Source: an uncultured Clostridia bacterium
GTDB lineage: Bacteria > Bacillota > Clostridia > Christensenellales > Aristaeellaceae
DNA length: 64,000 nucleotides
Assembly: GCA_946538615.1 (NCBI GenBank)
Contig: CAMNGW010000001.1
Coordinates: 5,166 to 69,165 of the forward strand
Reading direction: 5' to 3'
Part shown: positions 14,167 through 48,700 of the stretch, piece by piece
Position numbering within the stretch: the stretch's first letter is position 1
Layout: each line of letters begins with the position of its first letter
Program-made: the position numbers and the translations under genes
The notes under the pieces: model-generated
Seen by the model: only the letters and a program-made list of their open reading frames with translations
Told to the model about the DNA's origin: nothing
Databases searched by the model: none

Positions 14167-15081
14167 ATGGCAAAAAAGAATTCTGTCCTTCAGTATACCC
14201 GTGTCAAACCCATGACAAACTTCTGGATCAGCGTCCTGTTCATCTTTCTGGCGCTGCTGTGCTTCCTGCCGGCCCTTCTGGTCGTGATCGTTTCCTTCTC
14301 ATCGGAAGCCTCCGTCCGCATCAAGGGCTACAGTTATATCCCTACAGAGTGGAGCGTTGCCGCTTACCAGTACCTTGCCAGACAGACCGGGTACATCGGG
14401 CGCGCTTTCCTGAATTCCATTGGCGTGACCATCGTCGGTACCTTACTGGGGCTTATCACCACAAGTACCATGGGGTACGCCCTGAGCCGTCCCAATTACC
14501 GGCTCCGCAAGTTCTTCACCTGGTACATCTTTATCCCCATGCTTTTCAGCGGCGGCCTTGTCGCCTCCTACGTGGTGAATGCACACGTCCTCGGTCTCAA
14601 GGATACCTACTGGGCGCTGATCCTGCCCATATGCTGTTCAAGTTTTTACTGCATCATCATGCGCCCCTTCTTCCAGACCACGGTTCCTGATGCCATTATT
14701 GAGTCTGCCAAGATCGATGGTGCACGGCAGATCCGCATTTTCCTTCAGATTGTGCTCCCCATTTCCCTTCCGGCTATCGCGACCATCGGTCTCTTCCTGA
14801 CCTTTGCCTACTGGAACGACTGGATGATGGCCAAGTATTATCTCTCAGGCAACTCGCAGGACCTCTATCCCCTGCAGTATGTTCTGATCTCTCTGGAAGA
14901 AAACATTACCTTCCTCACCCGCAACCGTGACATGATGACTGCCGGCACTGCCTCGCAGGTTCCTTCGGAAACCGTGCGTATGGCCATGGTTGTCATCTCT
15001 GTTGTCCCGATCGCCTGCTCCTATCCTTTCTTCCAGAAATATTTCGTCTCCGGTCTGACGATCGGTGCTGTTAAAGGTTAA
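14167..15081 (+). CDS. Carbohydrate ABC transporter permease (LplC/YteP-like)
   Basis: 304 aa from the ATG at 14167, with RBS GAAAGGAG. The EAA loop is IIESAKIDGARQIRIF. Confidence 0.85.
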   Translation: MAKKNSVLQYTRVKPMTNFWISVLFIFLALLCFLPALLVVIVSFSSEASVRIKGYSYIPTEWSVAAYQYLARQTGYIGRAFLNSIGVTIVGTLLGLITTSTMGYALSRPNYRLRKFFTWYIFIPMLFSGGLVASYVVNAHVLGLKDTYWALILPICCSSFYCIIMRPFFQTTVPDAIIESAKIDGARQIRIFLQIVLPISLPAIATIGLFLTFAYWNDWMMAKYYLSGNSQDLYPLQYVLISLEENITFLTRNRDMMTAGTASQVPSETVRMAMVVISVVPIACSYPFFQKYFVSGLTIGAVKG

Positions 15082-15131
15082 GGTTACAACAGCATACGCT
15101 GTGTAATAAATTACAAAGGAGGGTTTCGTTC

Positions 15132-29204: not shown

Positions 29205-30746
29205 TCAGCTGATTCCTTCAAGGGGCGTCCCGTTGACGTACAGTGTATAGCCATTGCCCTGCACGAGTGACGCATCACCTGAAAATGCTGTAATATTCGT
29301 GTCCGCCGTGAGCGTCCATGTGCTGCCTTCCTCAATGGTTACCGATACCGTTCCCAGTTCCGTGGAAACCGCTGTTCCCTTGCTGTTGACAATTTCACCG
29401 CTGAAGGTCCCTTCAAAAGAAGAACCGTTTCTGAGTGTCAGGGAAAATTCTGCATTGTCCCCTACAAGGACAGTGCCTGCAAGCTGCTGTGCGTCAGCCA
29501 CAAGTTCCGCTGTATTGCCCGCGCCCTTCCAGCCGTCATCACACACAGAAAGCAGGACATCGCTCCCCTCGTTGATCAGTGTCACGTCTGAAAGCGTTAT
29601 AACCGCATGCGTATTGGTCACATGGAACATATGGCCGCTCAGGCTTTTCAGCGACCCGCCTGTCATGGTAAAAGCTGATGTGCCGCTGTCCGCATCCCCG
29701 GACATCGACTGATAGATCATAATCGTATCCAGGAAGGTGGCATTTCCATTGCATTGGGTGTTGTTCGCCATCATGTCACAGTTCACAAGCGTAATGGAAT
29801 TCTTCCCTTCAATGCAGACCCCTTCGGAAAGATTGGAGACAAGGGTCGCGTTGCTGACCTCAATATCTGCCGTAGAGTAGATCACCGGGGAACCCAGTCC
29901 ATTGGAAATATATGTGCCCCCGTCTGCGATCACTTTTCCGCCGCCGCGGTCGGTGCGGATGGGTGCAGATGAACCTCCTCCGGTGGTCACGGTAAGGTTA
30001 CTTGCATAAGTCACACCGCCCCCCGTGGTCATAATGCCGCCAGATCCATTGCCCTTTGTTGTGATGGCCGTATCTTTGATATATACGGTTGTGCCATCAC
30101 CATCCGCACCATTAGAACCACCGTTGCCACCATAGCAGAAAACGCCGTTTGCCCCGGAAGCCTCACTGACGATGCTCCCACCGGCTATTGTCGTCACTGA
30201 ACCGCCTTTGACAAGAAGGGCCGCGTTCAGACCGTAGAAACTGCAGTTATCGCCGCCATCCGAATCGCCTGTCTTGCTCACAGACGGGTTGATGATGGTC
30301 ACTTCTTCATCAGTATTGATCATCAGTGCGCTTTCATCTGCCGTCTGGCTAGTGTAAGTTCCGTCTGTCTGGCTGGTTCCGGAGGTGACCTCAGTTGCGG
30401 CACTGTAGGTAAAGCTTGAACGATTGCCGCCTGGCATACCGCCTTCAGGCGGTTTTCCTCCCGGCATGTTTCCTGGCATGCCTCCCTCAGGCGGTTCCCC
30501 TCCCGGCATGTTTCCCGGCATGCCTCCCTCAGGCGGTTCCCCTCCCGGCATGTTTCCCGGCATGCCTCCCTCAGGCGGTTCCCCTCCCGGCATGTTTCCC
30601 GGCATACCGCCTTCAGGCGGTTCCCCTCCCGGAGCGCCAGAAGATGGGGGTTCCGGTGGCGTACCTGTCTGGCCACTTTCTGCAAACGCCGACACTGCTG
30701 CAAACATCATGGTGCATACAAGAAGAATTGAAACCAACTTTTTCAT
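29205..30746 (-). CDS. Secreted protein: signal peptide, Pro/Gly-rich tandem repeats, then a Gly/Thr/Ser-rich probable right-handed beta-helix domain (Cthe_2159-like carbohydrate-binding family?)
   Basis: 513 aa from the ATG at 30746, with RBS AAGAGG. The signal peptide is [22 protein letters not shown]. Four units of [14 protein letters not shown] are followed by a partial one. The C-terminal part has periodic short G/N/T-rich turns. The family call is from memory only. Confidence 0.6.
30427..30636 (-). repeat. In-frame 42-nt tandem repeat (~5 copies) encoding [14 protein letters not shown]
   Basis: The unit ggcatgcctccctcaggcggttcccctcccggcatgtttccc is directly visible. The three central copies are identical and the outer copies diverge. 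Confidence 0.9.
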
Positions 30747-31161
30747 AGGAATACCTCTTTTCTTTCCCGGTCCGCTTTCTGAAATGTCTTCCCGTCTGCG
30801 GTCTTCCCTCCGGCAGTCTGGATTGTACAAAAGAAATCTTAAATGAACCTTGAAACTGAATCTGTTTTTCTGTATCTGAGGAATATGTCAGCTGCAGGTG
30901 AAACCACAGCTCATCTGAAGGACATACATGTATTATAATCTGATGCAGTCTGACACGTCCCCTGATCACAATGGAAGCCTCTGTCTTTCCGTCTTAATCC
31001 TGACATTTTTCTGACCTGTCTGCTTTCAGAAGACGTTCAAAGCAGAAAATTTTTCTGATTTTGTTCGTCTCCTGATGATTGGTCTTTACCATATCCGACA
31101 ACTTTCCGCGAAAAAACACTGTACTTGGCGTCTTTGGTCACCGTAAAAGCAGGTTCGTCTA

Positions 31162-33236: not shown

Positions 33237-33268
33237 AAAACAGAAGCAGTATGCACTGCTTCTGTTTT
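33237..33268. terminator. Bidirectional Rho-independent terminator
   Basis: A perfect 14-bp stem aaaacagaagcagt / actgcttctgtttt with loop atgc. The A/T tracts are built into both arms. It lies between the convergent 31242..33218 and 33272..35041 genes. Confidence 0.75.
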
Positions 33269-33271
33269 TCT

Positions 33272-35041
33272 TTATGGGCTGTCGTGGCCTGATGTGTACC
33301 ACTCGATATATTCCCTTAACTCGTCCTCACTGGGTTTTTCCTGATCTTTCGGTTCCTGGTATGCCTCATCCGGTTCCTCCCGGCATATTTCTTTCACACA
33401 GGGAAAATCTGCATTCTCCTCAGTATCTGATCCTGAAATGTCCCATGTGCTTCCAGCGCGTTCATATCTGACCCGTTCCTGAGCAATGCGTTTCATTGCA
33501 ATGAGACTGTTTCTCCTGCTCACATCATCCATGGGTACGCGGGCCAGTTCCTGTGCGAGTACCTCCGGTCTGTTCATCCAGTCAGGAAGGACCACCCCCT
33601 GCTCCACACGTCTGCGGAATTCCCAGATCGTACTTTCCTCAATCCCTTTCTGACGTGCATCATGAATAACACGCCTGGCAAGAAGGGTGTAGATTTCACA
33701 GTCATAAGCATCCTCCTGGGCAAGGTACTGCATATCGACCATAGGGTGCGGATCATCTTCATCCGGCAGATACCTGGCCTCGTCCACATTGCCGTTAATA
33801 TACAGATAATAAAGCGCTGCATACGTCTTGCCCTCAGAACGTCTGAGCACGCGTCCAAGGCGCTGGATGCGCTGACGGTTCGTCATGGTCGATGAAATGA
33901 CGATCCCGATCGAAGCATCGGGAACATTCACACCTTCATCAAGCGCCTTGCATGTGGCCAGGATGCGGACCATGCCATCTTTAAAATCCCTGAGCGCACG
34001 TCTTCGCTGCTCCGGCAGCATCTGAGAATGGTACTTGGCTACATCATGAGGGAACAGGGTCTGCATATATGCTGCGATCCTGTCGGTCTGCGAAATTTTT
34101 TCACAAAACAGGATGATGCGCTCTGTCCGCGGAAGACGGCGGATCAGGGATGCTGCACAGAGCATGCGATTTCTTGCATTGGTGACAAGACTCCGCCGGA
34201 GATAGATCACATTGAGATATTTTTGCGGCAGGGATTGCGGGTCATCCAGTTTTTTGGCCAGTTCCAGAATACGCATGAAAAAGCTCCCGCCGCCGGAAGA
34301 AGCCAGTGCCGGAAAGGCATTGAGCAGCTGTCCATGCAAATAGGCCAGTGTGTCGGACAGTTCGCTGTATTGTAAAACTTCTTCACCGGTAAAGGAGACT
34401 GCAATCTGATAGATCAGGAAAGGGCTCACCTGCCCTTCAAAAACTGCTTCCCTCAGTCCGTACCAGTAGATTTCACTGCCCAGCGCTGGTACAAGCACCT
34501 GATCGTACCGGGCACATTGGGGCGTAGCAGAAAGCCCCATGGAAGCATAGCGGGACGGATCAAAAAAGCGGCTGTACTGAAAATCAAAGATTTTTTTGTT
34601 CTCGTCACCCGTATAGTGATGGCATTCATCCGCAATCAGAAAAGTATGCCGCCCATTCTGCATGTCCATATTGACATGGGCGGACAGCGCGTGCCGTGCC
34701 GAATTGACAACATACACCATACAAAAGCAGTCCGGATCATCCTTTTCCGCGCCATAATAGAGACCAATTGTCCTTTCGTCTGCACGTATCTCCTTTTCAT
34801 AAAAACGTCTGAGGCTCTGCACCCACTGCCGTGCGATCGCAATGGTTGGCGTGACAATGCGGACGCGAAGTGCTGTTTCCGGATGTCCGGTCTTCAGTCT
34901 GTCTTCCAGTACCCTGATTCCTGTCATGGCGCACATGGTTTTCCCCGCGCCTGTGATCACATGGACAATCCCATGGAACGCATGTTTTTCCCATGCATCC
35001 AGACACTCTCTCTGCCACCTGTACAGCTCCAGATTGCTCAC
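33272..35041 (-). CDS. Superfamily 2 DNA/RNA helicase (ResIII/DEAH-type) with ~190-aa C-terminal extension ending in an acidic tail
   Basis: 589 aa. Motifs: Q-like YRWQRECL, I TGAGKT, II IADECHHY, III LSATP, VI QRIQRLGRVLRR. The acidic tail is DTEENADF...EEPDEAYQEPKDQEKPSEDE. Confidence 0.85.
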   Translation of the reverse strand: MSNLELYRWQRECLDAWEKHAFHGIVHVITGAGKTMCAMTGIRVLEDRLKTGHPETALRVRIVTPTIAIARQWVQSLRRFYEKEIRADERTIGLYYGAEKDDPDCFCMVYVVNSARHALSAHVNMDMQNGRHTFLIADECHHYTGDENKKIFDFQYSRFFDPSRYASMGLSATPQCARYDQVLVPALGSEIYWYGLREAVFEGQVSPFLIYQIAVSFTGEEVLQYSELSDTLAYLHGQLLNAFPALASSGGGSFFMRILELAKKLDDPQSLPQKYLNVIYLRRSLVTNARNRMLCAASLIRRLPRTERIILFCEKISQTDRIAAYMQTLFPHDVAKYHSQMLPEQRRRALRDFKDGMVRILATCKALDEGVNVPDASIGIVISSTMTNRQRIQRLGRVLRRSEGKTYAALYYLYINGNVDEARYLPDEDDPHPMVDMQYLAQEDAYDCEIYTLLARRVIHDARQKGIEESTIWEFRRRVEQGVVLPDWMNRPEVLAQELARVPMDDVSRRNSLIAMKRIAQERVRYERAGSTWDISGSDTEENADFPCVKEICREEPDEAYQEPKDQEKPSEDELREYIEWYTSGHDSP

Positions 35042-35101
35042 TTCCCACTTTTTTGATTCCTTCAGATTTTACCATGATTAGACTGTAAAGCACACATCAG
35101 A

Positions 35102-35130
35102 TTGAAATAATGCATTTTCTGATATATACT
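35102..35130 (+). promoter_or_regulatory. Putative promoter of the 35192..38651 operon in the divergent AT-rich region
   Basis: TTGAAA (35102-35107), a 17-nt spacer, then TATACT (35125-35130). Confidence 0.4.
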
Positions 35131-35191
35131 TGAGCACGACTTTTCATATCATATCCCATTATCTGATTTTTCAAATAAGGAGAAAACCCCT

Positions 35192-35974
35192 ATGAATTAT
35201 GAAGATTTATACACTGAACTTGCTCCGCTGAAAAAAGCCGTCAAGGATGCTACCGGCAAAGCAGACTCTGCCAGCAAAGCAGCTCTGAAAGCCATAGAAA
35301 CCGGCAATGTCACAGACCTGAAAAAACAGATCAGCATTCTGGAAGGACTCAATGACACGATCTCCAGCGCTACACAGGCCCTCAAACAGGCCTCTGAAGC
35401 TTTCGACGTCGCCGCATATTTCTCCAGCAGCGATTATGAAAAGCAGCTTGTGGAAGAATGCCAGCGGTCTGGTATTGATGTAAAAAACACCGATAATGGC
35501 GTCTATGAAATGTTCCCCTATTCTGTAAAGATTGCTGCGGACCGCCAGGAGGTTACGTTCAATCGCAAAAAGTTCGCCTCGATCCGTCCTGCTTTCCTTG
35601 TCAAGACCATCAAGGAAGGCATTGAAAAGCTGAATAAAGCATCTTTCAACGGCGCCACCATTGCCAAGGAATTCGCTGCGGCTTATGATACAGCTATCGC
35701 TGTTGCCGGAAAGCCTGCCGGGACGCCCATCAGCCTTAAAGTCCTCTATAAGTATCTCGCCCCTACCTCAAGGGCCCGCAAGGAATACGACAACCTCAGC
35801 TTTGCCTATGATGTCGCACGGCTCTACAACGCCCACTATACCCTTCTCCCTGACGGACGTTCTATGGATATCTCCGGCGGGCGTGATGCAGCAAAGAACG
35901 GAGTCCGTGTTCTGAACAGCAACGGCAATGAAGAGATGCTCAGCACCATCTCCTTCAGTTCCGACAAGCAATAA
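35192..35974 (+). CDS. Hypothetical protein, no recognisable domain (N-terminal coiled-coil-like segment)
   Basis: 260 aa, with RBS AAGGAGAA. There is no signal peptide or TM segment. It is the first gene of the operon with the two P-loop ATPases. Confidence 0.6.
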   Translation: MNYEDLYTELAPLKKAVKDATGKADSASKAALKAIETGNVTDLKKQISILEGLNDTISSATQALKQASEAFDVAAYFSSSDYEKQLVEECQRSGIDVKNTDNGVYEMFPYSVKIAADRQEVTFNRKKFASIRPAFLVKTIKEGIEKLNKASFNGATIAKEFAAAYDTAIAVAGKPAGTPISLKVLYKYLAPTSRARKEYDNLSFAYDVARLYNAHYTLLPDGRSMDISGGRDAAKNGVRVLNSNGNEEMLSTISFSSDKQ

Positions 35975-35984
35975 TTTTCTTTCT

Positions 35985-36020
35985 TGTCTCCCGGAAAGGC
36001 CCGGGAGACAGGTTTCTTTT
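35985..36020 (+). terminator. Intra-operon hairpin + T-tract (possible partial terminator/attenuator)
   Basis: Stem tgtctcccgg (35985-35994) pairs with ccgggagaca (36001-36010) around a 6-nt loop. The sequence ggtttctttt follows. Confidence 0.5.
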
Positions 36021-36058
36021 CCCCTCATCTCATGATTTGAATAACGGAGGATATTTCC

Positions 36059-37438
36059 ATGGAGAACCTTGCATGGCTTGATCTCAAAGAAGATGAGCTG
36101 CAGCATGCTCTCAGACAGATCCTGCTCAGTGAATCAGCCGGTCCTAACCTGATCACCCGGGATATGTCGGTAGGCGTCGATTTTCTTGCAGATTTCTGGT
36201 CCAAATATTACCTCGAAGAATATATCAGAAATGGCGGCAGCAAGATCAAATTTGTAACAGGCCGTTCAGGTTCAGGGAAGACCCATCTTCTGGACCTTCT
36301 TTCGTACAAAGCCCAGAAAATGGGATATATCACCGTTAACCTTTCTGCAAGAGACTTTATGCTCGACAATTTCCGGACTGTCTACCTGGAAATCCTCCGT
36401 CACGTGGACTTGCCCTCCGTCTTTGACACCATGGCAGCAAATATTCTCCGTACGCTTGGAGTAGATCTTACTGACAAGCCTTCGGACCTCTCCTACACCG
36501 ATTTTCTGGTCAACAAAAGAGAACTGGACGTCATTATGCGCAATGATATCCGTGGTGCCCTGCGCTCCAATTTTCTTAACCATCCGCTTATGGACAGTAA
36601 TTTCGGTATGTGCTGTTCACTGCTTGTGGGCAATGCCCTTGGGCACCCCAAGCTTGACGATGCCACACTCAGCGTCCTCATGGACTGGATGCACGGTGAA
36701 AGCTCCCAGAAATTAACCACAATCAAAGCAGTTGGCCTGGCCCCCTACCGCATCAACAAATTCAACGCCCGGCACCTCCTGCGTTCACTGGCTGTTTTGC
36801 TGAACATGGCCGGCTATCCCGGCATTTTTGTCACCATTGATCATCTGGAAACAGTCATGAACCTCTCCGGACTGGACGAAATGAAGTATACGCCCAAAAA
36901 ACGCAATGACACCTATGAGAGCATCCGGCAGCTTGTGGATGACATCGACACGCTGCATCATGTTTTCTTTATCTATGCATTCAACAGTGAACTGCTGCAC
37001 AATGAAAAACTCGGGCTCCCTTCCTATGGGGCCCTGTGGATGCGCATCCAGAACGAGATTGTGTCAGAACGTTTTAACCGTTTCCAGGACATTGCCAACC
37101 TAGACAGACTGGCCAGACAGATTTATACACCCCAGGCCCTTATTGAAATCACCTCACGCCTGTCCTGCGCCCTTCCTGACCTGCTCGCCTGCTTCCCGGA
37201 CGTCTCGCCGGAAGCCGTATGGCGCCGTAACGGTCTGGCCGCTCTGATTCCCAAAAATCTCCCGGACGTCTGGCCACGGACCATCACCAGCGAAGAGGCT
37301 GAGGCGCTCATTGCTGAGCAGGCCTACGGTCCTGTCGGTCTGGTCAGGCAGGCGCTTCGTCTTTCTCTTGGGCTCGCAGAAAAGAATCCCGGGCCTGTGG
37401 ACATGCTCTCTGAGGAGGGGAATGAAAGCAATGTATGA
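36059..37438 (+). CDS. P-loop NTPase, BrxD/DUF2791-like (copy 1, Walker B Asp-His)
   Basis: 459 aa, with RBS ACGGAGGA. Walker A is GRSGSGKTHLL (36260-36283). The Walker B-like strand is GIFVTIDHLE, with D261 and H262. It is a paralogue of the next gene (MAGYPGIFVTIDHLE vs VMGYAGWVILFDEAE). Confidence 0.75.
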   Translation: MENLAWLDLKEDELQHALRQILLSESAGPNLITRDMSVGVDFLADFWSKYYLEEYIRNGGSKIKFVTGRSGSGKTHLLDLLSYKAQKMGYITVNLSARDFMLDNFRTVYLEILRHVDLPSVFDTMAANILRTLGVDLTDKPSDLSYTDFLVNKRELDVIMRNDIRGALRSNFLNHPLMDSNFGMCCSLLVGNALGHPKLDDATLSVLMDWMHGESSQKLTTIKAVGLAPYRINKFNARHLLRSLAVLLNMAGYPGIFVTIDHLETVMNLSGLDEMKYTPKKRNDTYESIRQLVDDIDTLHHVFFIYAFNSELLHNEKLGLPSYGALWMRIQNEIVSERFNRFQDIANLDRLARQIYTPQALIEITSRLSCALPDLLACFPDVSPEAVWRRNGLAALIPKNLPDVWPRTITSEEAEALIAEQAYGPVGLVRQALRLSLGLAEKNPGPVDMLSEEGNESNV

Positions 37439-38651
37439 TCTTGAAGCCCGGCACATTATAGAGGCCCTGCGTTCAGGTGTTCCTTCACGCACGGTTGGAC
37501 AGTGTTTTGCCCAGGCAAGGCCGGCTCTCCTTGAACGCATTCAGACCCAGCTTAATGAAGTCAGGGAACAGCACGTCTCTTCCGGCATGGTGATCCGCGG
37601 ACGATACGGTGAGGGCAAGACCCATCTTCTCAACACGGTCCTCTCTATGGCTTATGAGAACAATATGGTGGTTTCCTTACTTCCCCTGAGTCTGGAAAAC
37701 CCTATGGACAAAATGCACACGATGTATCCTGCCCTGGTCAGCCAGACCTATCTCCCCGGACGTGAACAGCCCGGGTTCTTCGAGCTGTTCAGCAATCTTT
37801 CCCTGAATTCCGACCCTTCCAACCAGCTGCAGGTCTTCGCCCTCAAGGAACTGGAATCAGATAAGCTCTTTTATACGCTCCGCACCTATCTGAGCGCCCA
37901 AAACAATGATGATTTCCAGTTTTCCCTGCGTTCAGATTTTGAAGGCAATTTTGTTTCCAATGCCGATGTCAAAAAAATGTACAGAGCTGAGTTCAAGCAG
38001 ACCGCCAAGTTCAATACGCCCTTCGCTAAGACCCTTCACACCTTTGACTATATCGCTTTCCTCAGCAAAGTCTTCCAGGTTATGGGCTATGCAGGCTGGG
38101 TGATACTTTTTGATGAAGCCGAGCTCATGGGGCGTCTTGGCAAAAAAGCCAGAATCAACTTTTACCGCAACATGGCTAAGTTCATCAATCCGCCGCCAAG
38201 TCTCATCAATACCTTTACCATGTTCGCTTTCACGGACAGCTATGTGGATGAGGTCATAGATGCAAAACATGACATCAGGAACCTGAATGAGCTTTTTCCC
38301 GACAATCAGGAGCCCATGCTAAGCATGATCCATGAAATCTCCAATGCCAACCGGCTGCGTTCCCTCACGCAGGATGAAATCCGCCAGGTCGTCTGTCATA
38401 TCCGCGAATACCACGCAAGAGCTTACTCCTGGACACCTGCCTCTACAGATGATGAACTCATGCATGTTGCCGACTCTGCAAGCCATGCGCTCCGCACCCG
38501 GCTGCGTTCTGTGATCGAATATCTTGATCAGGAATTCCAGTATGGAAACGCCATGGAAGCCAGCATTGGAGCACTCCAGACATCGTCATACGAAGAAGCA
38601 ACACCTTCCCTGGAAGCAATGAACACTGACGAAGACCCGGCCAACAGCTGA
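37431..38651 (+). CDS. P-loop NTPase, BrxD/DUF2791-like (copy 2, canonical Walker B)
   Basis: 406 aa from the ATG at 37431, with GAGGAGGGG ~10 nt upstream. It overlaps the upstream stop (ATGTATGA). The N-terminal segment is ARHIIEALRSGVPSRTVG. Walker A is GRYGEGKTHLL (37599-37622) and Walker B is VILFDEAE (D228 E229). Confidence 0.75.
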   Translation: MYDLEARHIIEALRSGVPSRTVGQCFAQARPALLERIQTQLNEVREQHVSSGMVIRGRYGEGKTHLLNTVLSMAYENNMVVSLLPLSLENPMDKMHTMYPALVSQTYLPGREQPGFFELFSNLSLNSDPSNQLQVFALKELESDKLFYTLRTYLSAQNNDDFQFSLRSDFEGNFVSNADVKKMYRAEFKQTAKFNTPFAKTLHTFDYIAFLSKVFQVMGYAGWVILFDEAELMGRLGKKARINFYRNMAKFINPPPSLINTFTMFAFTDSYVDEVIDAKHDIRNLNELFPDNQEPMLSMIHEISNANRLRSLTQDEIRQVVCHIREYHARAYSWTPASTDDELMHVADSASHALRTRLRSVIEYLDQEFQYGNAMEASIGALQTSSYEEATPSLEAMNTDEDPANS

Positions 38652-38727
38652 CAGGCATCAGGAAACGTTTTCCTTGCCAGAGCAGTCCCGTCCCCGCCGA
38701 CCAGGAACCCGTCTTTACTGGAAAATC

Positions 38728-38774
38728 AAAGAAGCTTCAGAACGCAGACCCGTTCCGCTTTCTGAAGCTTCTTT
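38728..38774. terminator. Bidirectional terminator hairpin
   Basis: A perfect 14-bp stem aaagaagcttcaga (38728-38741) / tctgaagcttcttt (38761-38774) with a 19-nt loop. It lies between convergent genes. Confidence 0.65.
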
Positions 38775-39368: not shown

Positions 39369-40478
39369 TTACCACCGGGAGAGGACGCTGATCATATTCC
39401 GCTGGAGCTGCCTGTACCTGCCGTAGGACACGTCATCTTTGCAGCAGTCCGCGCTGACCCCCATCTCTGTCTTTGTCCTGCCGGTCAGGTCCACGCACCT
39501 TCCCTGGTATCCGCTGACAAAATAGCCCCCCTCTTCAAACCCTGTGTCCAGGATGTCCAGCCCGCACATATCTGCCACGATCCTCGCCGTCACGTCATCC
39601 TGGCCCTTCTCAGGTACCGAGAGGTCAAACTTTCCCCTGCAGGTTTCTCCGGTATAAGCTTTGCGTACCACAGCAATCAGTTCATACAGATTCGTGATCC
39701 CCGGAAACTGCCGGACCGCTTTGCAGGGAACATCCTTCATCCATGTCATGTCCTCCGCAAACTTCCCGTCTGCTTCCATATCATACACAGCCAGAGATAC
39801 CGCCATACATCCCGGGAGAGCCGGGTTCGGTGCGTCTTCAAGCTCCATGCCCGGAAGGTACAGATGGTTTTTCCGGATCTGCAGCCTGTTCCTGGAAACA
39901 GCCGTATTGACAAGGGCGACAAGGGCTTCCGTATCCGCAAGGGACCTGTGTGCGCCGCGAAGGTCAAAACCTATTGCTTCTGCCATATTGCCCAGTTTAT
40001 GGCTCCGCATGCCCGGCCAGTACCGCCTTGCCACTTCCAGTGAATCCGCAGCACGGTCCGGCAGCTTTCTTTGGATCCTTGTACATGCAGATTGCAGAAA
40101 ACCGACATCAAAGGTCGCGTTATGGGCCACAAAGGGGTCATCACCGATAAATTCCAGAAATCTGGGGAGCACGGTCCTGATATCCGGCTCATCACTGACC
40201 ATATCATCCGTGATATGGGTAAGCTGCTGTACCTCATAGGGAATGGGCATGCCGGGATTGACCAGCTGCTGGAAAACTTCCGTGCGCTTCCCGTGCACCA
40301 CACGGATCGCGCCGATTTCCGTGATCCCGCTGTACTTGGGGCTCAGCCCTGTTGTCTCCAGATCGAAAGCAACGTACCGGTGGGAAGCAAGACATAGAAA
40401 ATCTTCAGCATCTATCATACGCAGCCCCTGTGATACGTGCCGTCTGGCCTGAGCGACCTTTTCTGTAAAAGCATCCAT
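39369..40478 (-). CDS. DEDDh (DnaQ-like) 3'-5' exonuclease fused to a ~190-aa C-terminal domain of unknown function
   Basis: 369 aa from the ATG at 40478, with RBS GGAAGGAGGG. Exo I is VAFDLETTGL, Exo II is FVAHNATFDVGFL and Exo III is HRSLADTEAL. Confidence 0.8.
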   Translation of the reverse strand: MDAFTEKVAQARRHVSQGLRMIDAEDFLCLASHRYVAFDLETTGLSPKYSGITEIGAIRVVHGKRTEVFQQLVNPGMPIPYEVQQLTHITDDMVSDEPDIRTVLPRFLEFIGDDPFVAHNATFDVGFLQSACTRIQRKLPDRAADSLEVARRYWPGMRSHKLGNMAEAIGFDLRGAHRSLADTEALVALVNTAVSRNRLQIRKNHLYLPGMELEDAPNPALPGCMAVSLAVYDMEADGKFAEDMTWMKDVPCKAVRQFPGITNLYELIAVVRKAYTGETCRGKFDLSVPEKGQDDVTARIVADMCGLDILDTGFEEGGYFVSGYQGRCVDLTGRTKTEMGVSADCCKDDVSYGRYRQLQRNMISVLSRW

Positions 40479-40563
40479 CGCTGATCCCTCCTTCCTGTTT
40501 CTTTTCGGCATTCCCCGCGCTTTCCCTGCATGACCCGTTTTTCATTCCTGCCCGTCTCTGGAA

Positions 40564-40641: not shown

Positions 40642-43600
40642 ATGAAACGCATCTGTATGCTTGCCCTTCTTCTCCTGCTTTTTGTCTCCTTAGCCGCAGG
40701 CGAGAGCGAAACTTACCGGTACAATGCTGAAACATATGCTGTCACAAAATATTCCGGCCCCGGCGGTGCCATCACCGTCCCGGCCGAATGGGACGGTCAG
40801 AAAGTTAAGGCACTGGCTCTTACTCTCTTTTACAATAACGATGACGTGACAGAACTCACCCTGTCCGAGGGCATTGAGGCCCTGCGGGACGGTGCCCTTG
40901 CCTATATGCGCAGCCTGACAGCCCTTCATCTGCCGGAGACTTTGCGCTACATCGGTCTGGGCAACATCCAGGGACTTTACGCACTCAAAGAAGTAATTGT
41001 TCCATCGTCCGTCAGTTACATCGGGAATAACTGCTTCAACTTCCTTGACGCCCTCGAATCAGTGACCTTTCTGGGGGAAGCGCCTTTTATTGGTGAGCTC
41101 AGCTTTTCAAACATCCCCGACTCCACTGTCTTTTATGTTCCGGATGACTGTGTTGACGCGTACCGTCAGTGCCTGCCGGAAAGCGCCAGCATCCAGCCTT
41201 CCGGAAAAAATGCTGTCCGGCACGCTTTTCTTACGGACGAAAACGTTTTCGATTTTGACGCATCCACAGGGACCGTGACCGGCTACCATGGTTCGGAAGC
41301 CATTGTTACGCTTCCCCGGACCATAGGCGGGACCCAGGTACGGCACATTGGCGAAGGCGTTTTCCGCAAGGACAATTTCCTGAGTGTGATCCTTCTCCCG
41401 GAAGGCCTTGAATCCATCGGCAAAGAAGCCTTTGCTGATGCCCGTTTCCTTGTGCACGTCGACTGTCCGGACACAGTCACACTGATTGATGACGGGGCTT
41501 TCAACAACGGTTTCCACGGCAGTTCCTTTGACTGGAGCAGGAACCTGAAGTCCATTGGCGACCTTGCCTTCAGATGGGCCAATTCTCTCAGTTCGGACCT
41601 TATTCTGCCTGAAGGGCTCACCAGCATTGGTGAGGAGGCTTTCACGGGCATGAGCTATGTCGATGTCTATCTGCCTTCCACCATTGAACATATCGGCCGC
41701 CGTGCCTTTGCAGACTCTTTCCTGCACTATCTCTCCCTTCCTGTCTATGAAATGAGGGATTTTGCTGAGGATGCTTTTGTGAACACTTCATCTTTTGAAG
41801 ATCTGGACCTTCCCTGGGATGCCTCCCTTGAAACACTGCGTACTTTTGAAGCCTTCCTGAACCCGCAGGCGCCCGGCTGCCATGTCTGGCTGAACAATCC
41901 TCCGGACGTCGATTATGTAAGCGGGGACTACCTGTACACCTTAGGCGATGATGACATGTTCTACCTCACCTCCTATCAGAGCGATCAGGAGGCCCTCATG
42001 CTTCACTACAATGTCTGGGACAATTCCGGGGAGGAGCGTGTCACCAAACCCGTTGCAGGCCTTGGAGACGGCGTGTTCAAAGGCAATCAGACCCTGAAGC
42101 TTTTCAGGGTCACCCATTCCTTCGACATGACGAAAATCGGCAAGGAAGCCTTCGCTGATTCGTCCATCGTGGCAGTCGACCTGTTCTATTCCATCGAAGA
42201 GATCGGGGAAGGCGCTTTCCGCAACTGTAAAAATCTGGAAGAACTCGTTTTGCCCGCAAGCGTGAAATATATAGGGGATGGCGCCTTTGACGGCTGCGAT
42301 GCCCTGAAATCTGTGACAGTGCTCTGCGACGCTGGCATCGTTCCTGATGACGCCTTTGTCAACTGCCCTGCTCTGATGGAACATCCGGAGGGCATCACCT
42401 TCCTGCCCGACGCTGACCCGGATGCTGTCCGTGCCGTCCGCACAGCCATGGGGCTCCCATGGTACGACGCAGAAAACCTGATTCTTATGCCCTGTGCCCC
42501 TGACGACGCAGCTGTCTTTGATTTTGATCCCCAATCGGGCATGATACGTGGCTATCTCGGTACAGACGCCGATGTCGTTGTGCCCCGTGAAATTGATGGC
42601 GTGGCCGTGCGCGGCATAGCCCGCAATGCATTCGAAGCGTGCCGGGACTACACGGATACTGACATGGTCACCAACCGGACATCTTATGTCTATCTTCGTT
42701 CCCTTGTCCTTCCTGAAACAGTGCAAGTGATTGAAGACGGGGCCTTCAGCTATCTGCAGCACCTTTCGACCTTTATCTGCTATGCGCCCCTTGATACGAC
42801 GGGCCGCAGTACGTTTGCTTACTGCAGGTCATTGAACCATGTCATTTTCCCCAACGGCTGCGATGTCATCGACAACTATGCCTTCGACCATGCAGGCTCC
42901 CTTGAAACATTCTGGAACCCGCATACAGTAAGCCGGATCGGAACTTTTGCCTTTTCCCACTGTGCACTCCGCGAAGCAGTGGTAAACGCTCTGGAACTGG
43001 ACTATGGCGTCTTCTCATACTGCAATGACCTTGAGTCCATTCATTTCAGCCGTGCTCCCAAAACTTTTACAGCTGTCCCGGTTGTCAGCTGTCCGTCCCT
43101 GTGTCTTGTCTGCCTGCAGTTTACCTCCCTCTCTTCCCTTCCCCCGGACGGTTTCATCTCTCAGGTTGCGCCTGTACTGACCGTGCAGGTGCCGGCGGAC
43201 ACTGACGAAGAGAACTGTGCCCGCGCCGGGCAGGTTCTGGTATGGGGCTCAGACACAAAAGCGGAGGTTCTCCGTGAGAACTGCACATATGAAGTTTCAG
43301 CACCTGATATTACTGCCATTCTGACAGAATATGAACAGAACCCCTATCTGCCGCCCCAGGCGGAACCCACCTCTGAGCCAGCGAAGGCAGAGCCTGCAGG
43401 ACCGGAAGGAGAGCCTTACCTGGGCTCATGGTACGTTGCCCAGGTTATCCTCGGTGATACGACCTATGCGGCATCTGATTTTGGCGTGGAAGCCACGTTC
43501 ACCCTTTACGCTGACGGGACATGTCAGATGGTTGATCCGGACGGGGAGTCAATCCAAGGTGTCTGGTCTATGACTGACGGGAACATGAACCTTATGGGAG

Positions 43601-45492
43601 AACGCTTGGAGCCCCAGGAAGACGGTTCCCTTCTTGCCTCAAGCGACGGCATCGGGATGGTCTTCCTCAGACTGGATGAGGACAGTATCCCCGCACAGAA
43701 TGGCCCCGGCAAAGAAGGCGAGCCGTTTGTTGGGACCTGGCGCGCCACGCAGGTCCGGAAAGGCGGTCTGATCTATCATTCCGATCAGAAAACGGAAATC
43801 ACCCTTCACGCTGATGGCACCTGCCTGCTTCTGGGGGCAGATGGGGACACCCAGCAGTCAACATGGTCCGTGAAGAACGGCGCTGTCAGCATCATGGGCA
43901 AGATATTCGAACCCCATGAAGACGGTACGCTCACCACATCCCTGGGGGACACAGAGCTGATCTTTATCCATGTAGAAGAAGCGTCCCCTGTGCCGTCCGG
44001 AACGTCCGATGAGGACAGGCAAGCGTATTCCGGTTCCTGGCACCTGGTCCGGGTCGGGCTCGGCGATACCATATATGCCGCTTCTGATCTCGGCATGGAG
44101 ATGGAGCTCCTGCTGGACCCGGATGGGACCTTTACCCTTCACGGGCCGGAGCATGATGAAACCGGCACCTGGTCCATCGCAAACGGTACCCTGGATCTTT
44201 CCGGGACTCCATTTGTCCTGCAGGAGGACGGAACCCTGTCGGGCGAGGATGAAGGCATCCGCCTGGTTTTTGAACACGGGGCCGCTGCCGACCTGACACC
44301 CGCAGGCAGAGAACCCTATATTGGCACCTGGTACGTGACCCATGTTACCTTCGGGGAAACCACCTATGCCGCCTCTGAACTGGGAATGGAAATCGAGATC
44401 ATTCTGCATGAAGACGGGACGTGCCTGATACACAATCCCGAAAGCGAAGAGCACACCGGGACCTGGTCACCCAGGGGAAATGTACTTGACATCGACGGCA
44501 CGCCATTTACGTTGCAGGAAGATGGGACCCTTTCGGGCGAAGAAGACGGTATCCGTATGGTATTTGCCCACAAGAGCGAAACCGCCGCTCTCCCCAGTGA
44601 AGACATGGCGTTCTACAGCGGTACCTGGCTCGTGACCGGTGTGGCCTTTGGCGATACGATGTTTGCAGCTTCTGAACTTGGAACGGAAATTGAGATCATT
44701 CTCTGCGAAGACGGAACTTGCGTGACCCGCAGCCCTGAGACCGGAGAAGTGGCCGGTACATGGATGCTCCGGAATGGGCAGCTTGATATAAACGGCACAC
44801 CATTCACTGTGCAGGAAGACGGTACGCTTTCAGGCACAGAGGATGGGATCCGTATGGTATTTGCACGCCAGGAAGAACCGGATGCCGCCCCCGGCGAAGA
44901 AGGCCTTCCCTTTACCGGTACCTGGTACGCCACCTCGGTCCAGTCCGGCGGATCAGTCCGCTCAGCCGCGGAATCCGGCATCTCGCAGGCCCTTGACCTT
45001 GGTGCCGAAGGACAGTACACACTCACTGACACAGCAACGGGGGAAACCCTTGCCAGCGGAAGATGGACCGTCACCGGTACCGGTCTGGACCTGGGTATGG
45101 TCCAGCTGGACAAACAGGAAGACGGCTCGCTCAGCGCACCTGCAGATGACATGACCATCTTTTATACCAGGGACCTTCCGGCTGAAGCCACACTTCCTCC
45201 CACCGCTGAACCTTCCCTGAACTATGCCGGCACATGGGTCCCCTCCAGAGTCTATGTCTCAAGTCTCGACTTTGATGCCGCCGATCTTGGCTATGCGGAT
45301 GTCCTGTATCTTCACCCTGACGGCACCTACCGGTACGAAGACAAACAAGGTCTGGTCACAGAGGGTACATATACCGCGTCCCCGGAAGGTATCCAGTTTG
45401 ACGGCGCGCTCTGGGCCCTGCAGGAAGACGGGAGCCTGCTCCGGGAAGACGGTGTCATTCTGATTTCCTATATCCGTCAGGAAGCACCCTGA
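40642..45492 (+). CDS. Giant secreted protein: BspA-like leucine-rich repeats (N-terminal ~900 aa), Pro-rich linker, then seven ~99-aa GTW-type (lipocalin-like?) repeats
   Basis: 1616 aa. The signal peptide is MKRICMLALLLLLFVSLAAG. Many units of the form L.LPE.L..IG..AF..C..L occur. The C-terminal repeats are described in the repeat feature. Confidence 0.8.
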   Translation: MKRICMLALLLLLFVSLAAGESETYRYNAETYAVTKYSGPGGAITVPAEWDGQKVKALALTLFYNNDDVTELTLSEGIEALRDGALAYMRSLTALHLPETLRYIGLGNIQGLYALKEVIVPSSVSYIGNNCFNFLDALESVTFLGEAPFIGELSFSNIPDSTVFYVPDDCVDAYRQCLPESASIQPSGKNAVRHAFLTDENVFDFDASTGTVTGYHGSEAIVTLPRTIGGTQVRHIGEGVFRKDNFLSVILLPEGLESIGKEAFADARFLVHVDCPDTVTLIDDGAFNNGFHGSSFDWSRNLKSIGDLAFRWANSLSSDLILPEGLTSIGEEAFTGMSYVDVYLPSTIEHIGRRAFADSFLHYLSLPVYEMRDFAEDAFVNTSSFEDLDLPWDASLETLRTFEAFLNPQAPGCHVWLNNPPDVDYVSGDYLYTLGDDDMFYLTSYQSDQEALMLHYNVWDNSGEERVTKPVAGLGDGVFKGNQTLKLFRVTHSFDMTKIGKEAFADSSIVAVDLFYSIEEIGEGAFRNCKNLEELVLPASVKYIGDGAFDGCDALKSVTVLCDAGIVPDDAFVNCPALMEHPEGITFLPDADPDAVRAVRTAMGLPWYDAENLILMPCAPDDAAVFDFDPQSGMIRGYLGTDADVVVPREIDGVAVRGIARNAFEACRDYTDTDMVTNRTSYVYLRSLVLPETVQVIEDGAFSYLQHLSTFICYAPLDTTGRSTFAYCRSLNHVIFPNGCDVIDNYAFDHAGSLETFWNPHTVSRIGTFAFSHCALREAVVNALELDYGVFSYCNDLESIHFSRAPKTFTAVPVVSCPSLCLVCLQFTSLSSLPPDGFISQVAPVLTVQVPADTDEENCARAGQVLVWGSDTKAEVLRENCTYEVSAPDITAILTEYEQNPYLPPQAEPTSEPAKAEPAGPEGEPYLGSWYVAQVILGDTTYAASDFGVEATFTLYADGTCQMVDPDGESIQGVWSMTDGNMNLMGERLEPQEDGSLLASSDGIGMVFLRLDEDSIPAQNGPGKEGEPFVGTWRATQVRKGGLIYHSDQKTEITLHADGTCLLLGADGDTQQSTWSVKNGAVSIMGKIFEPHEDGTLTTSLGDTELIFIHVEEASPVPSGTSDEDRQAYSGSWHLVRVGLGDTIYAASDLGMEMELLLDPDGTFTLHGPEHDETGTWSIANGTLDLSGTPFVLQEDGTLSGEDEGIRLVFEHGAAADLTPAGREPYIGTWYVTHVTFGETTYAASELGMEIEIILHEDGTCLIHNPESEEHTGTWSPRGNVLDIDGTPFTLQEDGTLSGEEDGIRMVFAHKSETAALPSEDMAFYSGTWLVTGVAFGDTMFAASELGTEIEIILCEDGTCVTRSPETGEVAGTWMLRNGQLDINGTPFTVQEDGTLSGTEDGIRMVFARQEEPDAAPGEEGLPFTGTWYATSVQSGGSVRSAAESGISQALDLGAEGQYTLTDTATGETLASGRWTVTGTGLDLGMVQLDKQEDGSLSAPADDMTIFYTRDLPAEATLPPTAEPSLNYAGTWVPSRVYVSSLDFDAADLGYADVLYLHPDGTYRYEDKQGLVTEGTYTASPEGIQFDGALWALQEDGSLLREDGVILISYIRQEAP
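43408..45489 (+). repeat. Seven tandem ~99-aa protein-coding repeats
   Basis: The consensus, visible by eye, is G(T/S)W.......G.T.YAAS(E/D)LG.E.E..L.EDGTC.......E..GTW....G.LD..GTPF.LQEDGTLSGE.DGIR.VF. Repeats 3-5 are most similar to each other. Confidence 0.75.
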
Positions 45493-45653: not shown

Positions 45654-45735
45654 GCAAATGCACAGACAGACATGAAGTTCTGTCTGGCTGGTGCTTCTGT
45701 GGTTCAACAAGGGTCAGAAGTCTGGAGGTTTAGTA

Positions 45736-48700
45736 ATGAAACAGATCACCGGAACCCTTTTGCTGGTATTATTCATGTTCGCCCTGTTCCCTTCTGCCTG
45801 CGCCGAGGATCTGGTCCTCTTTGAAGACGTGTTTTCTTCAGAAGAAGCCTGTACCATGGACGGTCCGTCCACCGATGCACTGACAAAGGGCTATCTGAAA
45901 AATCTCCTTTATCCGGGCACGTCCTCCAGCCGCTCTGCCATGCCTCTTGGCGACAAGCTGACCGGGGTCAATAAAACCCTCTATGATCTGCTGAAATCCG
46001 GCATTGCAGAAATTGCAGCAGGTGACCGGCAGTCCACTCAGTTTGAATTCTACTACAGGGATATTTTTCCCCAGATCTCCTTTACTGAGGCCGAGCTCGG
46101 GACGCCTATCGTTGTCGATAAGGCCATCTCTTCTGCTGCCGTCAGTGCAATGAAAGCCAAAACAACAGCTTTGCTTGATATCGCCTCTGTGGTCCGTGCC
46201 CTGCTCGCAGACTCTCCCTATGAGCTGTACTGGTTCGACAAATCCGGTAAGGGATATACGATTGGAACCTCAGAAAAAATAAGCGCGACTACCAAAGTGC
46301 TCTCTTTTAAACCCGATGTCAGCATGCTTACCATAACCATGAATGTGGTGCAAGCCTATGCTGTGGACTATGACCCCGATCCCGATATCAAAGTCAAAAA
46401 CTCCGTCATGAACACAACCTACGGCAAAAGTGCGGCCCAGGCAGCTGTAAAAGCCCGCGCCATCACCGCTGCCAACGAGGGCAAAAGTGACTATGACCGT
46501 CTCCTTGCCTATAAAAACGCCATCTGTGAGCTGGCAAGCTATAACAACGAGGCGGCAGAAAGCACAGATATGCCCTATGGTGATCCCTGGCAGATGATCT
46601 GGGTCTTTGATGACGATCCCACAACCAAAGTTGTCTGTGAGGGCTATGCCAAAGCCTTCAAATACCTCAATGACCTTTCCCGCAGCTCAGTGAGCACCAT
46701 ACTCGTCTCCGGAACAATGATCGGTGCCACGGGTGAAGGTCCACATATGTGGAATGTTGTCACCATGGATGATAACCTCCGCTATCTTGTGGACATCACC
46801 AACTCGGATATCGGCACGGTCGGCTATCCGGACCAGCTGTTTCTCGCAGGCTACGATTCCGGTACCTTGAGCAGTGGTTATATTCTCACCCCTAACGGCA
46901 ACGCTACCCTGTACGGCTATGATTATGAAACCCTCATGCTCTTTTCCGAGGATGAGCTGACCCTGTCAGACAAAGACTATATGGAAAACCTTGACCTGCC
47001 CCGTCTGCAGGCTGAGGACAGGACAGTCGTCATCCTTCCCGAAGTCACAGAGCATCTCAGGCCCACCGGAGCAGAATTCTCCTTCCATCTGGAAAACTAT
47101 GATCCTGAGAACAGCCAGGATACGCCTGAATATTCCCTCCGCCATATCTCCGGCCCTGAGCTGAACCCTGAATTGTCCGTCTCAGACGATCATACGTATG
47201 GAACAGCCACAATCCCCTATGAGAACCAGCCCAAGGAAAGCAGCGTTTCAGTCTATGAGATTCGCTGTACGCTTGGAAATACTGTATACCGGAAGACATG
47301 TGCCATCACTTTCACCGAGGATGCCATGCCCACCGGCAGCACGCTTCCCGATCCCATTGAGCTCCAGATGGGACAGACTTCACAGATCACCGTTTCCTTC
47401 ACGCCTTCCGAAGGCTGGTGGGAGCAGGCTGCAGATCCTGACATCCTCTTTGATATGAGCCCTGAAGCTTTCGGGGACGCCTTTACCTATGAGGTCGACC
47501 GGGAAAACGTCGCGCCTAACGCGGTCCCCGTCACCCTTATCCCTCAAAAACCCGGTTTCTATCTGGGTTGGGCCGGTCCTGTCTTTAACGGCATCCAGTA
47601 CAGGGACCTAGTCGAAGTCATTGTCCTGGATGAAAACGGGAACCTCCCTCAAGTCACGCCGGAATTTGACGAGATAGCACCCTGCAGTTACGCGGTGGTT
47701 CCCGAAAATGATGACCATTTATCCGCAGACGGATGGCTCTTCTCTTTCAGCCTCTCCAATGCTGAGCTGCTCCGCAAGCGTTACGGGAGCGTGCCTGTCT
47801 TCACCGTTGAGCCCCTGTCCGGTCTTCCCTTTGATATTGATGTCCATTTTTATGAGGACCTCTACAGCGGATATGTGACAACGGACCGCAAGCCTTCTCA
47901 GCCCTGCACAGCGGAATTCCTGGTAACGGCCAGCTTTGGCGATGTATCTTCAAGCACAACGGCCTCTGTCACCTTCCGCGAAGATGTTTTGCCCACCGGC
48001 GTTGCTGTCCCGGATGTGATTGAACTGCAGCTTGGCCAGGCATATACATGTACAGCTGGCTTTGAACCTGAAGAGGGATGGTGGACAGACCCGGAATATG
48101 GCACAGCCATATGGTTCGACGGGAATTACCAGGACTATGTGGAAATCCAGATCACCCAGCCCGATCAGACCCACACCGGAAGTGCAGTTCTGACCCCTCT
48201 GCAGGCCGGCATCTCTCAGGCCTGTGTGCACGTGTCCACACAGGGCGTGACATACAGCAAGTTTGTCGCCATTTGCATTGCCGATGAAAGCGGCAACGTT
48301 CCCATGCCTGAACCTGAGTTTGAATCTGTCAGCGAACAGCGCTATGTCATCATTCCTCAGGACCATGCCAGTATCAGCGCAGATCCTCATCTGTTCTCTT
48401 TCCACCTTGCCAATTACGATATCCTTGCACCCTTCTATGAAGGAGACCCCGTTTTTACTGTAACATCCTCCCCGGACCTCACCTTTGATTATCATGTCCA
48501 GACCTGGGAAAGCGGCGGTGAAGCTGATGCCGTTGCAAAGCCTGACGCACCCTGCACAGCTGAATTTACGGTCGCTGTCGATTGGGACGGACATCAGGCA
48601 AGCACTGCAGTTTCTGTTTCATTCACCGAAGGTCCGCTGCCCACCGGGGTCGCCATACCCGATAACGTTCATCTGCAGGTGGGACAGGAAAGTGTATTTT

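Follow-up and report, generated by a model that had tools for sequence, protein, structure and literature searches.

Operons that bring together a TerB protein, an ATPase, and a helicase were reportedly first discussed by Anantharaman et al. in 2012. Shango, composed of a TerB-like protein, an ATPase, and a DEAD/DEAH helicase, has been shown to have anti-phage activity, by a mechanism that is unknown (bioRxiv 10.1101/2022.11.11.516204; bioRxiv 10.1101/2022.05.11.491447). The ATPase BrxD and the helicase BrxHI of the bacteriophage exclusion (BREX) systems form a tightly linked dyad, for which BrxD has been proposed as the loader or activator of the helicase (PMC12839542). PbeA is an HKD endonuclease fused to a superfamily 2 (SF2) helicase (PMC10853773), and in MANTIS an AAA+ ATPase and a small co-regulator recognize DNA and trigger a helicase-type effector (bioRxiv 10.64898/2026.09.23.753747). 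Here we describe a block of four genes at positions 33237-38774 of a 64,000-nt stretch of DNA from an uncultured Clostridia bacterium (contig CAMNGW010000001.1), the whole of which we call the window. The block encodes an SF2 helicase (HEL), an orphan protein of 260 aa (U260), and two ATPases (ATP1 and ATP2), and we read it as a horizontally mobile, self-contained four-gene cassette that most likely serves in modification-independent defense against phages or other mobile DNA, a reading to which we give a probability of roughly 0.6.

Judged by its genes, the cassette resembles Shango and the BrxD-BrxHI dyad yet falls outside each of the known systems; by analogy, it is most likely of the same general kind as Shango and as the dyad of type 2 BREX. 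With Shango it shares a small and apparently non-enzymatic first gene product, an ATPase of the SngB family (PF10923), and an SF2 helicase, together with the lack of a methylase and of an obvious nuclease. However, it has no TerB protein (SngA), carries two divergent ATPases instead of one, and counts four genes instead of three. With the dyad of type 2 (and type 6) BREX it shares the tight linkage of a BrxD-family ATPase of the ORC/Cdc6 clade to an SF2 helicase, but the cassette stands alone, in a window without PglZ, BrxC/PglY, PglX, or PglW, and without the PAPS reductase of type 4. MANTIS, Gao_RL, and the DUF499 "BREX-related" systems follow a similar concept of an ATPase, a small co-regulator, and a helicase, but they need a methyltransferase, a helicase-nuclease, and DUF499 ATPases, none of which is present in the cassette. 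Finally, the loading of MCM by ORC/Cdc6 and Cdt1 offers an analogy, with its paired ORC/Cdc6-clade ATPases, one of them with a weak site, its cofactor, and its helicase; here, however, the helicase belongs to SF2 and is not an MCM protein, any similarity of U260 to Cdt1 or ORC is non-significant (E>0.8), and no homology is claimed.

No PADLOC model set gives a name to the four-gene block or assigns it to a complete, named system, and the literature on DUF2791/PF10923, BrxD-like proteins, SngB, PbeABCD, and Cdc6/AAA+/BREX defense yielded no description of this gene set. As far as these sources go, the cassette is real, widespread, and without a name in PADLOC v2 or in the literature.

The ATPase pair, the helicase, and U260

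A scan of the window for open reading frames (ORFs) returned the four ORFs where an initial annotation, made from the letters of the DNA, had placed them, with all the motifs it had named. That annotation had considered both ATPases as BrxD/DUF2791-like paralogues. ATP1 (36059-37438, plus strand, 459 aa) and ATP2 (37431-38651, plus strand, about 406 aa, in an ORF open from 37311) indeed pass the gathering threshold of PF10923 (BrxC_BrxD), which is 22.2 bits, with 98.0 bits (7.6e-28) and 83.8 bits (1.6e-23), respectively. Both also match the PADLOC models BrxD (1e-16 and 1e-12) and, slightly more poorly, SngB (3.7e-15 and 4e-11), and so find their place in this family and not in an unrelated housekeeping one. 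Against the NCBIfam BrxD equivalog NF033438, however, they reach 60.1 and 43.5 bits, far under its cutoff of 350 bits, which sets them apart from the ATPase of the BREX dyad. By these scores, ATP1 and ATP2 are classed as members of the BrxD family and not as BrxD proper. The BrxC/BrxD group of PF10923 belongs to the ORC/Cdc6 clade of AAA+ proteins, and the literature places BrxD among the AAA+ ATPases of ORC/Cdc6 type (PMC12839542).

The two proteins differ in their active sites. Walker A is conserved in both families, as GRSGSGKTH in ATP1 and GRYGEGKTH in ATP2, the latter also bearing the N-terminal BrxD-type ARHIIEALRSGVPSR. The Walker B of ATP2 (VILFDE) keeps its Asp-Glu pair in 76/76 orthologues. 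That of ATP1 (FVTIDH) keeps the Asp in 78/78 orthologues, but the position of the catalytic Glu (window 36827-36832, ATP1 residues 261-262) is occupied by Glu in none of the 78, being Asp in 55, Asn in 16, His in six, including the window copy, and Ser in one. An Asp-Glu pair that is always present in ATP2 and a Glu that is never present in ATP1 fit an asymmetric pair in which one site hydrolyzes ATP and the other regulates, and pairs of Orc/Cdc6 ATPases where one Walker B is disrupted have been noted in other conflict systems (PMC10853773). As to their kinship, BLASTP aligns ATP1 and ATP2 over the P-loop only (26% identity over 68 residues), whereas hhalign relates the two families at E 2.5e-5 over 319 columns, so that the proposed paralogy stands in the sense of a deep and ancient relationship. 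According to the alignment of the 76 orthologues and to the DNA, the conserved start of ATP2 is the ATG at 37431 (or 37422), behind a GAGGAGG Shine-Dalgarno sequence, which gives a protein of about 406 and not 446 aa. This start overlaps the stop of ATP1, suggesting translational coupling of both ATPases.

HEL (33272-35041, minus strand, 589 aa) carries both RecA lobes plus motifs I (GAGKT), II (DECHH), III (SAT), and VI (QRLGRVLRR), which qualifies it as an SF2 helicase as first annotated, and it matches ResIII (PF04851, 3.3e-18) and Helicase_C (PF00271, 1.4e-17) in Pfam. These four motifs are invariant or nearly so in 73-74 orthologues. The protein begins directly at helicase motif Q/I and ends in an acidic tail of about 65 residues without counterpart in the orthologues. 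Its best match is PADLOC PbeA (3.2e-58), of which only the helicase half aligns (profile positions 252-631 of 672-682), the HKD nuclease being absent from HEL. The NCBIfam model TIGR04095 ("DNA phosphorothioation system restriction enzyme") follows with 5.7e-42, and the XPB/Rad25 models rank next (NF045503, 1.1e-17; PF16203, 3.4e-10). The match to PADLOC BrxHI is weak (4.6e-8) and covers the RecA2 lobe only (residues 292-404), and SngC is not among the 24 PADLOC families that HEL matches at E<=0.01. HEL would accordingly be described as an XPB/PbeA-like SF2 helicase without a nuclease domain, and not as a BrxH- or SngC-like one. The likeness to the BrxD/BrxH accessory pair put forward in the initial annotation is thus borne out for the linkage of a BrxD-family ATPase to an SF2 helicase, but not for the type of the helicase, nor does HEL have the Lhr/Ski2-like character of the BrxHI of type 2/6 BREX or resemble the helicase of Shango. 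Even though PbeA is the best match for its core, the block is no PbeABCD (CxC-ABC) system either: besides the missing nuclease, it contains neither PbeC (the CxC ABC ATPase) nor PbeD (DndE-like), and the window holds no Dnd genes.

U260 (35192-35974, plus strand, 260 aa), in which no motif had been recognized initially, has no match in the Pfam, NCBIfam, PADLOC (v2), or PHROG models. It is nevertheless not an isolated protein, with 186 homologues at E<=1e-3 in a 90%-clustered database and 691 relatives among the 1.84 billion representatives of a library clustered at 50% identity, nearly all of these relatives being stand-alone proteins of 255-290 aa. The family equals the enzymes in conservation, at a mean column identity of 57%, with an invariant N-terminal MNYE and invariant D72, E106, K126, R132, K146, R194, R196, D200, D207, R210, and R239. 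The AlphaFold2 model, built from a 29-sequence alignment, is confident, with a mean predicted local distance difference test score (pLDDT) of 88 and a predicted template modeling score of 0.72. It predicts a long antiparallel helical hairpin (residues 3-70), followed by an alpha/beta domain with the invariant basic residues and a DxxRL helix, in which a five-strand beta-meander (residues 97-128) precedes four helices and a small C-terminal sheet. Foldseek returned nothing at E<=0.001 for the full-length model against the PDB and BFVD, nor for the C-terminal domain modeled alone (pLDDT 79) against the PDB, and a profile search of the PDB sequences retrieved only designed coiled coils, matching the N-terminal hairpin. 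The non-significant Foldseek neighbors of the C-terminal domain (E 0.8-3) are rich in winged-helix proteins, namely Cdt1, ORC subunits, Cdc6/Orc1, TFIIE, and MukE/JetB, which we take as a hint only.

Three other identities were considered for this protein or its relatives and set aside. Kinship with TerB was rejected, as 29 family members have no match to the Pfam families TerB, TerB_N, or TerB_C at E<=5, and U260 itself has no match to PADLOC SngA and no fold match in Foldseek. A nuclease of the PD-(D/E)xK type was considered for the invariance of E106 and K126 in the main clade, but the YEMFPY strand is not kept in the Desulfomonile clade described below. What U260 has in common with that clade is the DxxRL helix and the basic loop preceding it, and not the EMFPY strand, which favors binding over catalysis; the C-terminal domain is thus more likely a binding domain than a nuclease. 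Finally, a 646-aa protein (P0182) that looked like a U260 fusion joins a rhamnosidase-like N-terminus abruptly to a U260 fragment and is probably an assembly chimera.

Linkage, distribution, and a second clade

Relatives of U260 were found in about 229 stretches of a one-genome-per-species collection comprising 185,579 species genomes; 80 of the 229 were fetched as loci, and the orthologues of all four window proteins were located in them. All four genes are present in 67 of these 80 loci, 12 are cut by a contig end, and the remaining one (L054) holds a helicase remnant only, so that, in answer to the question raised by the initial annotation, the four genes are found together in virtually all homologous loci. 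The order U260-ATP1-ATP2 is unchanged throughout. The helicase, in turn, is mostly divergent and upstream, but it is co-directional and upstream in five loci (L050, L060, L071, L077, and L078) and downstream in four (L016, L039, L081, and L082), being adjacent in all the loci with enough sequence. A helicase that is rearranged and yet still adjacent points to a functional linkage and argues against a chance neighborhood.

Some of the loci show traces of decay or insertion. L054 (9431-9736) is a decaying copy, in which the helicase remnant counts 46 aa. Loci L048, L058, and L064 contain additional ORFs between HEL and U260, and an IS30-like HTH_38 gene (L001:6433-7728) lies beside the cassette in one Dorea contig and is absent from another (L003); insertion sequences that came to land in the AT-rich control region may account for these cases.

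The surroundings of the cassette differ almost everywhere, and a conserved core position among relatives is not seen. When the flanks of the 80 loci were compared over three genes on each side, 350 proteins fell into 302 clusters, the largest of which has five members, and clusters this small indicate that there is neither a fifth conserved gene nor a conserved position. None of the flanking proteins of the window recurs beside the block in other loci. Most carriers are Lachnospiraceae living in the guts of mice, humans, rabbits, and ruminants, with further copies in Sphaerochaeta sp. PS, in a metagenome-assembled genome (MAG) of Spirochaetales, and in a Bacilli MAG; such sparse carriers, spread across phyla, imply horizontal transfer. 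The Bmp-like gene that adjoins the block in the window has orthologues at 76% and 69% identity in the nearest available relatives, with the block missing from the 10 kb around them, in regions where synteny is lost anyway, and a metagenome scan for this gene gave one 2.5-kb contig with a rhodanese gene in place of the block. Look-ups of window proteins by exact sequence returned no record. This empty-site comparison is consistent with an accessory insertion, without a clean before/after pair.

A second, distant clade was found by tblastn of ATP2 against plasmids. Plasmid pDESTI.01 of Desulfomonile tiedjei (NC_018026.1, record 10215-15641; L085) carries a sister system that encodes, in this order, a hypothetical protein of 279 aa, ATPases of 430 and 397 aa, and a helicase of 701 aa. 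Both ATPases are annotated there as "BREX system ATP-binding domain protein" and the helicase as DEAD/DEAH, with AbiEi/AbiEii and ParA lying upstream of the four-gene set. By hhalign (probability 81%, E 1.2e-5), the 279-aa protein can be aligned with U260 across 158 columns that lie in the C-terminal domain and take in the F..DL.RL helix. It also matches the profile of the 82-member U260 family at E 8.6e-9, and we class it as a remote U260 homologue. The order of the ATPases is also kept, the first being ATP1-like and the second ATP2-like. The helicase, on the contrary, belongs to a different family from HEL and matches PADLOC BrxHI (4e-87) and SngC (8e-74) over its full length, so that this clade has the BrxHI-type helicase of type 2/6 BREX and the likeness to the Shango helicase that the window clade lacks.

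Metagenome copies of the sister system adjoin a C5 DNA methylase, Vsr, and a DUF87 protein in one case (L087) and sit between very large helicase genes in two others (L089 and L090). Another copy (L088, 1641-3156) is decaying, with its BrxD-like genes broken into pieces of 68 and 99 aa. More divergent relatives of U260 are likewise followed directly downstream by an ATP1-like gene. Two clades with the same U260-like protein and the same ATP1/ATP2 pair, but with different helicases, indicate that the core of the system is the U260-like protein plus the ATPase pair, and that the SF2 helicase is exchangeable.

Boundaries, control signals, and surroundings in the window

According to the initial annotation, the block is bracketed by two perfect 14-bp hairpins, which is exact for the left one only. 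The left hairpin (33237-33268) has fully complementary arms (33237-33250 and 33255-33268, 14/14) around a 4-nt loop, with an A-run on its 5' side and a T-run on its 3' side, and could terminate transcription from both sides, that of the Bmp-like gene on the plus strand and that of HEL on the minus strand. The right one (38728-38774) is longer and imperfect, its 21-nt arms (38728-38748 and 38754-38774) around a 5-nt loop being 90% complementary, with the outer 15 bp perfect and a weak T-tail. The two transcription units diverge, as had been noticed, from a common AT-rich control region of 150 bp (35042-35191, 32% GC), which contains a promoter-like, sigma-70-like site on the plus strand (TTGAAA-17-TATACT, 35102-35130) and a GGAG Shine-Dalgarno sequence ahead of the U260 start. 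A strong hairpin resembling an intrinsic terminator, missed in the initial annotation, separates U260 from ATP1 on the plus strand (35983-36012; 12 bp with eight GC pairs, then the T-run TTTCTTTT) and would give more U260 than ATPase transcript. It was not found in the two closest relatives (L004 and L007) and is specific to the window genome, which makes it a local expression feature outside the design of the system.

The GC content of the block is 0.504, lower than in any of 474 other intervals of equal size (0.551 +/- 0.017, minimum 0.522), confirming the impression that it is less GC-rich than its flanks. An Rfam scan of the block gave nothing close to any threshold, and the bounds of the block in the window show no tRNA, integrase, transposase, target-site duplication, flanking direct repeats, or terminal inverted repeats.

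The remaining window encodes housekeeping functions (glycoside hydrolases, ETF, ABC transporters, OTCase, a tRNA synthetase, RecO, and pantothenate kinase). PADLOC and Pfam scans of its 41 other proteins found no PglZ, PglX, BrxC, TerB, or Dnd protein, in keeping with the absence of PglX, PglZ, BrxC, and TerB noted beforehand. The block had been described as lying among surface-protein genes, which is loosely true: its direct neighbors are the Bmp-like protein and a DEDDh exonuclease, but a Pro-rich repeat protein and BspA-type leucine-rich repeat giants follow one gene beyond. The former is a secreted protein (29205-30830, minus strand) with about five tandem 14-aa Pro/Gly-rich units and no Pfam match. 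Very large ORFs of 1616 and 1392 aa lie on the plus strand at 40642-45492 and 45691-49869, the 1616-aa one having many repeats of a C-terminal module of about 115 aa and being probably a cell-surface protein. One window protein, not singled out in the pooled scan, matches Pfam LRR_5 (BspA-type leucine-rich repeats). The exonuclease (39369-40511, minus strand) joins a DEDDh (RNase_T) domain to a YunG-like C-terminal domain and is convergent on the cassette; it is probably unrelated to it, because it was not found adjoining the cassette in other loci. A window protein that is most likely this exonuclease matches the PADLOC DEDDh "Cas-associated" model at 2e-38, and one of the 41 proteins outside the block matches the PADLOC candidate family PDC-S48 at 3e-29 in the pooled scan.

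Proposed mechanism, alternatives, and meaning

By their profile matches, three of the four proteins are assigned to families known from defense systems, and the conservation of the catalytic motifs of HEL, ATP1, and ATP2 points to selection on them. From these properties, from the literature on the BrxD-helicase dyad, and from the anti-phage activity of Shango, we infer complex formation, a division of labor between the ATPases, a role for U260, a trigger, and an immune outcome, put together in a loader-helicase mechanism. ATP1 and ATP2 would form an asymmetric hetero-oligomer of ORC/Cdc6-clade AAA+ proteins, where ATP2 would hydrolyze ATP and ATP1 would bind the nucleotide as a regulatory or slow subunit. 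U260 would take the place of TerB in Shango as a non-enzymatic adaptor or sensor, its coiled-coil hairpin serving assembly and its basic domain, perhaps of a winged-helix type, binding DNA or a partner. Once foreign or aberrant DNA is sensed, the ATPase pair would load or activate the HEL translocase on that DNA, and HEL would in turn block replication or expose the DNA to host nucleases.

Several observations weigh against an immune function. Above all, the cassette contains no nuclease, toxin, or other recognizable effector, which is the main gap in our account. The main clade was not found in phage, plasmid (72,556 plasmids), or IMG/VR collections, and the PHROG matches of the block proteins are to generic helicase families only. 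The defense context was sampled in 148 non-redundant neighbor proteins, scanned as a pool and without a background control. They belong mainly to metabolic and transport families, and about eight give strong matches to defense models, each a single case: a type III methyltransferase, JetB, AbiEi, PtuB, HEC-02A/B, PDC-S01, and PDC-S27, to which two HEPN proteins and two PDDEXK_9/AAA-ATPase-like proteins can be added. These defense neighbors are suggestive, but the defense-island signal of the main clade is weak, because its flanks are mostly ordinary metabolic and transport genes and the window around the block is a housekeeping region. The role given to U260 draws only on the conservation of basic residues and on hints from structure that are non-significant (Foldseek E > 0.8). 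The case for immunity is circumstantial, the cassette being known here from its genes alone, and a name more recent than our sources is possible. Of the undescribed immune-module variant suggested in the initial annotation, it is thus the four-gene set without a PADLOC name or description that stands, whereas immunity has indirect evidence in its favor.

Among other explanations, the cassette might be an accessory module for DNA transactions of the host, with an ORC/Cdc6-like loader pair and a cofactor loading an XPB-like helicase for repair, replication restart, or recombination. The matches of HEL to the XPB/Rad25 repair models, the lack of an effector nuclease, the mostly housekeeping flanks, and the winged-helix loaders (Cdt1, ORC, and Cdc6) among the weak neighbors of the U260 C-terminal domain, none of them significant, would all agree with this. 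A repair role would be expected to be wider and vertically inherited, however, and the cassette is present in about 0.1% of species genomes, at varying positions, across phyla, and with an atypical GC content; moreover, the sister clade occurs on a plasmid, beside AbiE and restriction-type genes, and the closest models of the ATPases are defense-specific, all of which makes us regard this explanation as unlikely. Slightly less probable again is a module for the maintenance or competition of a mobile element (anti-plasmid exclusion, or a replication or partition helper) within an unrecognized integrative element. ORC/Cdc6-clade ATPases do include transposition and replication helpers (PMC10853773), one copy of the system is on a plasmid by ParA, and IS-like insertions lie near or inside some loci (the HTH_38 gene of L001, and L048, L058, and L064). 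This has to be set against the absence of an integrase, transposase, tRNA, terminal inverted repeat, or target-site duplication at the window block, of any recombinase family recurring in the flanks of the 80 loci, and of main-clade matches in the 72,556 plasmids and IMG/VR.

Decay offers yet another origin, as the block could be what is left of a BREX, Shango, or Dnd/Pbe system that was once larger and has been deprived of its genes for modification or sensing, given that its ATPases and helicase resemble accessory parts of those systems and that a few copies are visibly decaying (the helicase remnant of L054 and the broken ATPases of L088). We find this very improbable, since the same four genes, and only these, are intact in 67/80 loci with conserved catalytic motifs, U260 is conserved to the same degree as the enzymes, and PglZ, PglX, BrxC, TerB, and Dnd are absent both from the window and from the 25 most-matched families of the 148 sampled neighbors. 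As for the chance adjacency of two unrelated units, a stand-alone helicase and a three-gene operon, it would suit a helicase encoded on the opposite strand with its own terminator, but it is in effect refuted by the survey of the 80 loci, where the helicase adjoins the other genes wherever the sequence extends far enough, in three arrangements and, with the sister system, in two distant clades.

Beyond defense by a self-contained cassette, a more far-reaching proposal, which we hold as tentative and on balance doubtful, is that U260 is the founder of a new fold family and the specificity or sensor subunit of an unrecognized, autonomous "loader-helicase" immune class, where an asymmetric ORC/Cdc6-type heterodimer deploys interchangeable SF2 helicases against invading DNA, without DNA modification or a dedicated nuclease. 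If true, this would also account for the action of the BrxD-BrxH dyad in BREX and of the Shango core.

The cassette represents an ATPase-helicase core stripped of methylases, PglZ, and TerB, and it matters for this reason, given that for neither type 2 BREX nor Shango is it known how a BrxD-type ATPase and its helicase cooperate. Hundreds of gut Firmicutes carry the cassette in conserved form, including cultured strains such as Schaedlerella arabinosiphila DSM 106076 and Hominisplanchenecus murintestinalis DSM 111139, and its two clades, which differ in helicase family but share the ATPase pair and the first protein, provide a natural comparison. It would thereby be a compact model for how an ORC/Cdc6-like pair recognizes DNA and engages a helicase, for how an invader may be restricted without an obvious nuclease, and for the function of a new family of 260-aa proteins. 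As a defense system, it would add to the defense catalogues a common and currently unannotated system of the Lachnospiraceae of the human, mouse, and ruminant gut.

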